Origin: Candidatus Micrarchaeia archaeon | GTDB taxonomy: Archaea; Micrarchaeota; Micrarchaeia; Anstonellales; J096 | Assembly: GCA_041500405.1 (NCBI GenBank) | Contig: JBGQMB010000007.1 | Span: 1 to 28,802, forward strand | Reading direction: 5' to 3' | DNA: 28,802 nucleotides | Part shown: one piece after another, positions 15,596 to 28,508 of the stretch | Layout of the letters: every line of letters starts with the position of its first letter | Numbering within the stretch: position 1 is the stretch's first letter | Notes under the pieces: model-generated | What the model was told of the DNA's origin: nothing | The model's input: the letters and a program-made list of their open reading frames with translations, nothing else | Database searches by the model: none | Position numbers and translations under genes: made by a program

Positions 15596-15729
15596 TGCCA
15601 AGGGGGGGGCTCGAACCCCCGACCTCTAGATGACCCAAAGCTTTCCTATCATCGCCGTTGAAACGGCTCAGCACTCACAAAATCGCGTTTTATGAGTCTA
15701 GCGCTCTAAGCCGGCTGAGCTACCTTGGC
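15596..15729 (-). tRNA. Elongator tRNA-Met(CAU) with a 59-nt intron (15632-15690) at position 37/38
   Basis: Acceptor GCCAAGG/CCTTGGC, anticodon stem CTAGA/TCTAG, loop CT-CAT-A, T arm GGGGG-TTCGAGC-CCCCC. BHB central helix C32-A35 pairs with intron UGGG. Confidence 0.93.
15646..15682 (-). ncRNA. Putative intron-encoded box D'/C' (K-turn) 2'-O-methylation guide targeting C34 of the host pre-tRNA
   Basis: Guide UUUUGUGAGU, then G, CUGA, hairpin GCCGU-UUCA-ACGGC and G-AUGAUAG. The 5th nt upstream of CUGA pairs with C34. Confidence 0.65.
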
Positions 15730-15752: not shown

Positions 15753-15762
15753 TTTTTTAAAA
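15753..15762. promoter_or_regulatory. Putative bidirectional TATA box
   Basis: TTTTTTAAAA lies about 24 nt from both the tRNA-Met 5' end (15729) and the ATG at 15787. Confidence 0.55.
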
Positions 15763-28285: not shown

Positions 28286-28381
28286 AAAGAAACTAATATG
28301 CGCCTGCCTTTTTTTAAAAGAATTGGCGGGCAGATTAGGTTTTTAAATGTTTTACCCAAAAAGAGTCTCACCTGAGCTTGT

Positions 28382-28484
28382 GGGCTCGTAGCTCAGCCTG
28401 GTAGAGCGACGGTCTTATAAGGCGCGTTCTAGCACACAAACCTAAGTCAGCCGTAGGTCCTGGGTTCAAGTCCCAGCGGGCCCA
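28382..28484 (+). tRNA. tRNA-Ile(UAU) with a 29-nt intron (28420-28448) at position 37/38
   Basis: Acceptor GGGCTCG/CGGGCCC, anticodon stem ACGGT/GCCGT, loop CT-TAT-A and T arm CTGGG-TTCAAGT-CCCAG. BHB helix CUUA/UAAG is all Watson-Crick. Confidence 0.93.
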
Positions 28485-28508
28485 TTTTCAATTTTGGGAG
28501 GGGAAAGC

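Follow-up and report, generated by a model that had tools for sequence, protein, structure and literature searches.

Textbooks describe box C/D guides as two-sided RNAs. The DNA analysed here, a stretch of 28,802 nucleotides from a Candidatus Micrarchaeia archaeon that we refer to as the window, raises the question of whether half of such a guide, carried in the intron of an elongator tRNA-Met precursor, could direct methylation of that precursor's own wobble cytidine. The original prediction, made from the sequence alone, had placed a guide and a set of box motifs in this intron on the minus strand, and every motif was found where it had been placed. The reading that we favor, with a probability of about 0.7, is that the intron would hold a natural box C/D guide of half the usual size, which directs Cm34 in the unspliced precursor while competing with the fold used for splicing.

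The tRNA-Met gene and its intron

The gene lies on the minus strand at 15596..15729. The Rfam tRNA model RF00005 matched 15729-15596 with 55.6 bits and a 61-nt insertion after the CAU anticodon, and ARAGORN, which missed the gene in its default run, reported a tRNA-Met(cat) with a 59-nt intron when introns were allowed; the two programs place this intron at 15632..15690, in the canonical 37/38 position. The tRNA has the pair G1-C72 and the anticodon stem CUAGA/UCUAG, and the initiator tRNA, with A1:U72 and an anticodon stem of three G-C pairs (GGG/CCC), is encoded elsewhere, on another contig (G000 C1:5812-5887). The window also carries a tRNA-Ile with the anticodon UAU and a 29-nt intron (28381-28485, plus strand; ARAGORN with the -i option, 58.3 bits with Rfam), and TiaS (PF08489) was not found in the genome, which is 86% complete. 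AUA is probably read by this UAU tRNA rather than by an agmatidine-modified tRNA-Ile2, and the presence of the tRNA-Ile(UAU), together with the failure to find TiaS, makes it unlikely that the CAU tRNA at 15596..15729 is a tRNA-Ile2. The tRNA-Met gene is housed in an inter-ORF gap of roughly 300 bp, where an A/T-rich box, UUUUAAAAAA, noticed on reading the minus strand at 15753..15762, 24-33 nt upstream of the 5' end of the tRNA, is a possible candidate for an archaeal TATA element. Introns also interrupt the genome's tRNA genes for Trp (28 nt; C1:12600-12702), Leu-CAA (38 nt; C30:612-735), Ser-CGA (49 nt; C41:6267-6399) and Tyr (27 nt; C16:13515-13614), and inspection of these four introns by eye revealed no layout of guide and kink-turn.

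On the minus strand, to which all positions in this section refer, the intron reads AAA-CGCGA-UUUUGUGAGU-G-CUGA-GCCGU-UUCA-ACGGC-GAU-GA-UAG-GAAAGCUUUGGGUC. The 10-nt guide UUUUGUGAGU (15673..15682) is separated by a 5-nt linker loop, CGCGA (15683..15687), from a target strand (15688..15697) that was read from the minimum-free-energy fold and consists of A31, C32, U33, C34 (15694), A35, U36 and A37 of the exon followed by the first three As of the intron. Pairing of 15682-15673 with 15697-15688 yields nine Watson-Crick pairs and one G-U pair in a helix of exactly 10 bp, as had been predicted, and the minimum-free-energy fold of the pre-tRNA includes both this helix and the 5-bp hairpin of the intron. 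When the intron is folded alone its stability is not unusual (z = +0.76), the signal being the helix between exon and intron. The proteins L7Ae, Nop5 and fibrillarin methylate the base that is paired at D+5. A single nucleotide, G15672, stands between the guide and the D'-type box CUGA (15668..15671), which appears as NUGA in relatives, and the fifth nucleotide 5' of CUGA, G15676, lies opposite C34 (15694), in agreement with the N+5 rule and with the pairing originally proposed. It is this one-nucleotide spacer that sets C34 opposite the fifth nucleotide, so that the methyl group would be placed on the 2'-OH of C34.

Directly after CUGA comes the canonical stem of the kink-turn, GCCGU/ACGGC with the loop UUCA (15654..15667), which is present in the fold and covaries in relatives, and then a C'-type box region (15646..15653) whose geometry, judged from the motif, would comprise a GAU bulge (15653-15651) followed by G15650, A15649 and U15648. 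Together, CUGA, the 5-bp hairpin and GAUGAUAG constitute a kink-turn signature of the C'/D' type, in which G15650 and A15649 are expected to form tandem sheared pairs with A15668 and G15669, with U15648 opposite U15670. The C'-like sequence AUGAUAG (15652-15646) deviates from the consensus RUGAUGA at positions 6-7, an imperfection to which the original prediction had already pointed. The intron thus holds one set of the kink-turn boxes of C/D sRNAs (CUGA 15671-15668 and AUGAUAG 15652-15646); a second RUGAUGA/CUGA pair is absent from the intron sequence, which makes the element a half-size (halfmer) guide and not a canonical C/D sRNA. We discarded, for the window, the possibility of another kink-turn built from the intron's 3' portion or by circularization, as no further GA-containing box is present. 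The element would work like a C/D guide and still stand outside the canonical family, whose members are bipartite. When Rfam was searched at permissive thresholds, the only hits besides the tRNA were noise (a C. elegans snoRNA family at E=3.2 and mascRNA at E=3.9), and the element is covered by no curated Rfam family.

The enzymes that such a guide would need are encoded in the genome: fibrillarin (266 bits), Nop5 (145 bits) and L7Ae (88 bits). The genome also encodes at least five canonical bipartite C/D sRNAs, compared with 0 in reversed-strand controls, which are built as box C, 11-13 nt, CUGA, 3 nt, C', 12-13 nt and CUGA. All five lie outside the window, in G000 at C14:13272-13320 (+), C15:4471-4520 (+), C21:76-123 (+), C22:5521-5569 (-) and C40:1414-1462 (-). 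The enzyme genes and the five ordinary C/D sRNAs together indicate that C/D machinery is in use in this genome, and the genome's standard guides clearly look different from the intron element, a difference that bears out the earlier description of the element as a half-size guide with one kink-turn only.

Conservation and covariation in relatives

Relatives were sampled without bias toward the motifs, by a BLAST comparison of the whole pre-tRNA with 41 genomes from the window's own family and order. Matches in 27 of these genomes yielded 25 distinct elongator tRNA(CAU) loci, and in 23 of the 25 we found the layout of guide, one nucleotide, NUGA, hairpin or loop, and RAUGA, the order along the precursor being ACUCAU, a loop, the complementary stretch, the spacer, NUGA, a GC-closed hairpin and RAUGA. 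The two remaining loci both belong to genus g5 and have introns of 31-32 nt with no such motifs. Among the motif-bearing relatives helix and NUGA are separated by exactly 1 nt and the D+5 nucleotide is a G opposite C34 in every case (23/23 for each), and the core UGAGU followed by one spacer nucleotide before NUGA occurs in 22 of the 23, the last one having GAAU. The loop between target and guide measures 3-19 nt, with one case of 55 nt, and two relatives have a 3-4 nt loop in place of the hairpin.

In order to follow the guide helix independently of any alignment, each position was assigned by its distance from A31 and from NUGA, and the sequences paired there were counted. Pairs 1-7 are 95-100% paired, at positions so nearly invariant that comparison with shuffles is uninformative. 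Pair 8 is paired in 20/21 sequences with four pair types and pair 9 in 17/18, levels that were reached by 0/1000 shuffles in either case, these controls disregarding relatedness so that their counts are not probabilities. Pair 10 is paired in 12/18 (67%; reached by 19/1000 shuffles), and pairing then falls to 2/10 (20%; 945/1000) at pair 11 and 1/4 (920/1000) at pair 12; the guide helix in relatives stops at 10 bp. A MAFFT alignment, A1, of 21 of the 23 motif-bearing sequences (two with long inserts were left out) gave 93.1% of cells paired versus 84.1% in shuffles and a covariation score of 0.224 versus 0.102, each value reached by 0/500 shuffles of the same kind, and in slid registers 32-50% of cells were paired. 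Two-sided changes occur in 7/15 pairs of A1, including 4/5 pairs of the kink-turn stem. UGA is invariant in both boxes of the 21 aligned sequences and the A before the UGA of C' is nearly so, the first letter of D' is C, A or U across relatives, and positions 6-7 of C' are variable.

The guide helix is therefore real, and pairs 8-10, in which the guide pairs with the first bases of the intron, covary in relatives. As the helix extends into the intron, the selected substrate is the unspliced precursor. The end of the helix at 10 bp matches the limit on substrate length of C/D enzymes, described by Yang et al. 2020 (PMC7229835) and named in the title of Yang 2016, and the window's own helix does not exceed the 10 bp of a C/D guide-substrate duplex. 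The checks in silico that accompanied the original prediction, namely conservation of the motifs (the NUGA/RAUGA kink-turn, the UGAGU guide and the one-nucleotide spacer, kept at 23/25 tRNA-Met loci of relatives), covariation of guide and target, seen in the part of the guide that pairs with the intron, and the presence of genes for L7Ae, Nop5 and fibrillarin, all came out favorable.

Could the pairing nevertheless be ordinary? Introns at position 37/38 in archaea and eukarya usually pair with the anticodon loop, and in such a precursor CUGA and GAUGA might have arisen by chance. This reading is already contradicted by conservation, pairing, distribution, covariation and shuffles, and we regard it as scarcely credible: 300,000 shuffles of the intron produced 587 sequences with UGAGU-N-NUGA, only 4 of which had a kink-turn partner as well, hundreds of genomes carry the motifs, and the pairing of intron and anticodon loop that serves splicing employs another intron segment, UGGG at 15637-15634, and not 15682-15673.

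Additional introns were encountered in these genes. Many relatives have a second intron in the T arm of tRNA-Met (L009, L012, L016, L017, L019, L026), and two genomes of family f20 have one inside the anticodon stem (L191, L193); ARAGORN misses or miscalls tRNA-Met genes with extra introns at either place.

Guide fold, splicing fold and the probable order of events

To be spliced, the precursor has to adopt a different fold. The UGGG at 15637-15634 is able to pair with C32-A35, CUCA/UGGG forming a central helix of 4 bp, and together with U15633, C15632 and A38 (15631) it makes up the splicing-fold strand at 15631..15637 of the minus strand. Worked out by hand, the bulges of this motif are U36-A37-A and U-C-A38, the latter containing the 3' splice site. 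Because the inner helix is weak, the bulge-helix-bulge is a relaxed one, and the intron is a tRNA intron of the protein-spliced kind; UGRG precedes the 3' splice site in most relatives. The genome encodes two homologues of the splicing endonuclease (tRNA_int_endo), at C18:10491-10730 in an ORF of 352 aa and at C31:7301-7543 in one of 158 aa, and the 352-aa protein may be a multi-unit form with a broad substrate range, which would fit relaxed bulge-helix-bulge motifs.

For the isolated anticodon arm with the intron, the guide fold has a computed energy of -22.8 kcal/mol versus -14.8 kcal/mol for the forced splicing fold, and because the loops are as short as 3-5 nt the cis hairpin is the predicted dominant fold of the naked RNA. 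As C32-A35 are needed by both the guide helix and the splicing helix, the two folds are mutually exclusive. Guide pairing and splicing fold exclude each other in the tRNA-Trp intron guide of Euryarchaeota as well. Since the folds share anticodon bases, the precursor has to refold before the endonuclease can cut, and methylation would probably come before splicing; the folding model suggests methylation first, followed by refolding and splicing.

We envisage the half-size guide at work as follows. In the unspliced pre-tRNA-Met the guide (15682-15673) would pair with A31-A37 and the first three bases of the intron, and directly 3' of this helix CUGA and GAUGA would form the kink-turn around the 5-bp hairpin. 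L7Ae would bind the kink-turn of the intron, Nop5-fibrillarin would dock on the L7Ae-bound kink-turn, and fibrillarin would methylate the 2'-OH of the wobble cytidine to give Cm34, after which the precursor would refold into the bulge-helix-bulge and be cut by the endonuclease. The guide could act in cis, or in trans between one precursor and another. More tentatively, and with some doubt on our part, the arrangement might constitute a built-in quality checkpoint in which the guide acts in cis, holding the anticodon in a helix some 8 kcal/mol more stable than the splicing fold, and splicing takes place only after C34 has been methylated and the enzyme released. If so, every mature elongator tRNA-Met would be born with Cm34, there would be a reason for the intron to be kept in tRNA-Met across DPANN and Hadarchaeota, and the element would prove, for the first time from a natural case, that one-sided C/D guides function in cells. 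Action in cis is argued against by the hairpin loops of 3-5 nt, which may hinder loading, and by the tRNA-Trp intron guide of H. volcanii, which acts in trans and is dispensable for growth (PMC11408192).

Several observations count against methylation as such. The sequencing runs on record are seven DNA runs from sediment metagenomes, with none from RNA. The element is not universal, although lineages without the guide keep fibrillarin and Nop5, and the non-canonical stem past the tandem G-A pairs is degenerate, being an A opposite a C in the window. Halfmers with C'/D' only were considered unlikely to assemble in eukaryotic cells (Yang 2020, PMC7229835). A further point is that no replacement trans guide to tRNA-Met was found in g5 with the exact pattern RTGAGTNNTGA, applied to five genomes, a search that sees no guides with G-U pairs or mismatches. 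Matches to this pattern in g5 were at the level of the backwards control; the three matches in G010 turned out to be linkers between D' and C' in ordinary C/D sRNAs, while a number of other matches recur as near-identical, conserved sequence from one g5 genome to the next. The idea that guide-less lineages might lack fibrillarin or Nop5 was abandoned, as the gene profile is uninformative: fibrillarin exceeds the cut-off in 40/41 and Nop5 in 39/41 relatives, including all g5 genomes.

The main rival reading is an element that L7Ae binds for structural reasons, without methylation, and that controls the folding or stability of the precursor, the timing of splicing or the stability of the excised intron. 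In its favor, C/D RNAs are far from the only RNAs whose kink-turns L7Ae binds (PMC5539422), and the splicing fold has a competitor in the guide helix, which exceeds it in stability by about 8 kcal/mol. Moreover, the C' box deviates from the consensus, fibrillarin and Nop5 are retained where the element is missing, and the corresponding intron of Nanoarchaeum equitans is a stable, abundant RNA (PMC3491384). What a structural role leaves unexplained is that the spacer is 1 nt in 23/23 relatives, that C34 always faces a G and that the helix stops at 10 bp. These are the rules of the C/D enzyme, and a structural role alone is thus insufficient to account for them; we consider this reading unlikely.

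Less likely still, in our estimation, is that the excised and possibly circular intron acts in trans, on tRNA-Met precursors, on mature tRNA-Met or on a different RNA. The tRNA-Trp intron of H. volcanii acts in this manner (PMC7994747, PMC11408192) and the N. equitans intron accumulates (PMC3491384), and by hand the window's guide could form 8 pairs with mature tRNA-Met. However, positions 9-11 of the guide covary with the bases that open the intron in the same gene, which argues that the selected substrate is the unspliced precursor and neither the mature tRNA nor some other RNA, and trans action of one precursor on another is already included in the explanation that we prefer, a half-size guide for Cm34 on the unspliced precursor.

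Known systems and distribution across archaea

The closest described system is the 66-nt intron of elongator tRNA-Met in N. equitans, which gives rise to a stable C/D-box-like RNA (Randau 2012, Genome Biol 13:R63, PMC3491384), so that the precedent named in the original prediction is real. In the published account that RNA has a single box D, a single imperfect box C and a GC hairpin, and it is called 'potentially guiding RNA methylation' (PMC3491384). The window's element resembles it in its elongator tRNA-Met host, in intron length (59 versus 66 nt), in its single box set and in its GC-rich hairpin, a likeness drawn from the published description. By description, then, the element is an intron RNA of the N. 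equitans type, and we infer that the two may be homologous. The description of the N. equitans RNA, as far as it deals with this intron, names no target and mentions neither self-pairing with the anticodon nor conservation outside N. equitans (PMC3491384). Beyond Randau 2012, a literature search that skips subscription papers and cannot query 'C/D' found no description of a self-targeting tRNA-Met intron guide or of its distribution, and a 2024 review of intron-dependent tRNA modification gives, in its treatment of archaea, only tRNA-Trp (PMC11408192).

The tRNA-Trp intron guide of H. volcanii, Pyrococcus and other Euryarchaeota (Clouet-d'Orval 2001; Singh 2004; PMC7994747, PMC11408192, PMC2584109) is similar in that it is borne by an intron and aimed at C34 of its own precursor, but it is bipartite with two guides, for C34 and U39, whereas the tRNA-Met intron has one kink-turn and one guide. 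The window's element is not of the tRNA-Trp type, its host being tRNA-Met, and the 28-nt tRNA-Trp intron of this genome is without box motifs. Cm34 of elongator tRNA-Met is itself guided by sR-tMet in H. volcanii (Joardar 2011; via PMC4033218, PMC6601510), by sRNAs in Pyrococcus (PMC7994747) and by SNORD97/SCARNA97 in humans (PMC6601510). These RNAs share with our element the target nucleotide and the enzyme family; they are separate bipartite RNAs that act in trans, whereas the window's guide lies inside the intron of its substrate.

In architecture the element is like the engineered halfmers, which, with a single box set and an open-ended guide, methylate specific sites in vitro (Yang et al. 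2020, NAR, PMC7229835; Wang et al. 2022, RNA, PMC9670817) and which sense substrate length with a 10-nt limit (PMC7229835, PMC9670817). Both combine a lone box set with an open-ended guide that lies 5' of a D-type box; the engineered halfmers are laboratory constructs, whereas the tRNA-Met intron element is natural, conserved and joined to its target by a loop of 3-5 nt. Whether halfmers exist and function in cells was posed as a question by the authors of the in vitro work (PMC7229835), and the tRNA-Met intron offers a natural, deeply conserved candidate with an unambiguous target. Such a guide would also explain, in functional terms, why the tRNA-Met intron persists in very small archaeal genomes. 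As cultured systems carry the element (Ca. Micrarchaeum A_DKE at locus L070, in which we found the motif, and, by description, N. equitans), the halfmer question is directly testable.

To see how widely the element occurs, we searched 401 genomes of the window's phylum with an exact pattern (GACTCAT, gap, GAGTNNTGA, gap, RTGA). The pattern was present in 216/401 genomes and in 110/188 of those at least 90% complete, compared with about 8 genomes, counted by hand from the table, for the reversed (backwards) control pattern. In the window's family it was found in 10/16 genomes, the six misses all belonging to genus g5 (0/6), and it was absent from families f17 (0/21), f20 (0/8), f21 (0/7), f22 (0/4), f23 (0/4) and f19 (0/3). 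Loci fetched from some of the pattern-less lineages had introns that were short or differently placed, with no guide.

When one genome of each prokaryote species was scanned with a stricter pattern, at least 120 loci matched, mostly from DPANN plus Hadarchaeota, and nearly all of these had the same architecture when parsed. By the record titles, which were given by depositors and counted by hand among the matches listed, 59 were of Micrarchaeota type, 15 unlabelled, 13 'Methanosarcinales', 9 Woesearchaeota, 7 Nanoarchaeota/Nanobdellota, 5 Hadarchaeota, 4 'Marsarchaeota', 3 Aenigmatarchaeota, 2 Diapherotrites/Iainarchaeum, and 1 each Nanohaloarchaea, Methanobacteriota and Nitrososphaeraceae, the last (4 bp, GUGA) being probably a chance match. 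The window's element is thus an ordinary member of a wider, barely described family.

The 13 records titled 'uncultured Methanosarcinales archaeon' (L038, L041, L048, L053, L065, L068, L085, L093, L107, L109, L114, L123, L127) carry a tRNA-Met intron element of the Woesearchaeota type, and their labels may be wrong. Finally, in longer introns at L035, L125, L066 and L148, in records from Aenigmatarchaeota, Micrarchaeota and Diapherotrites and in unlabelled ones, the conserved kink-turn is followed by another RAUGAU box and by a CUGA shortly before the 3' splice site; these introns may hold two-sided versions of the element.
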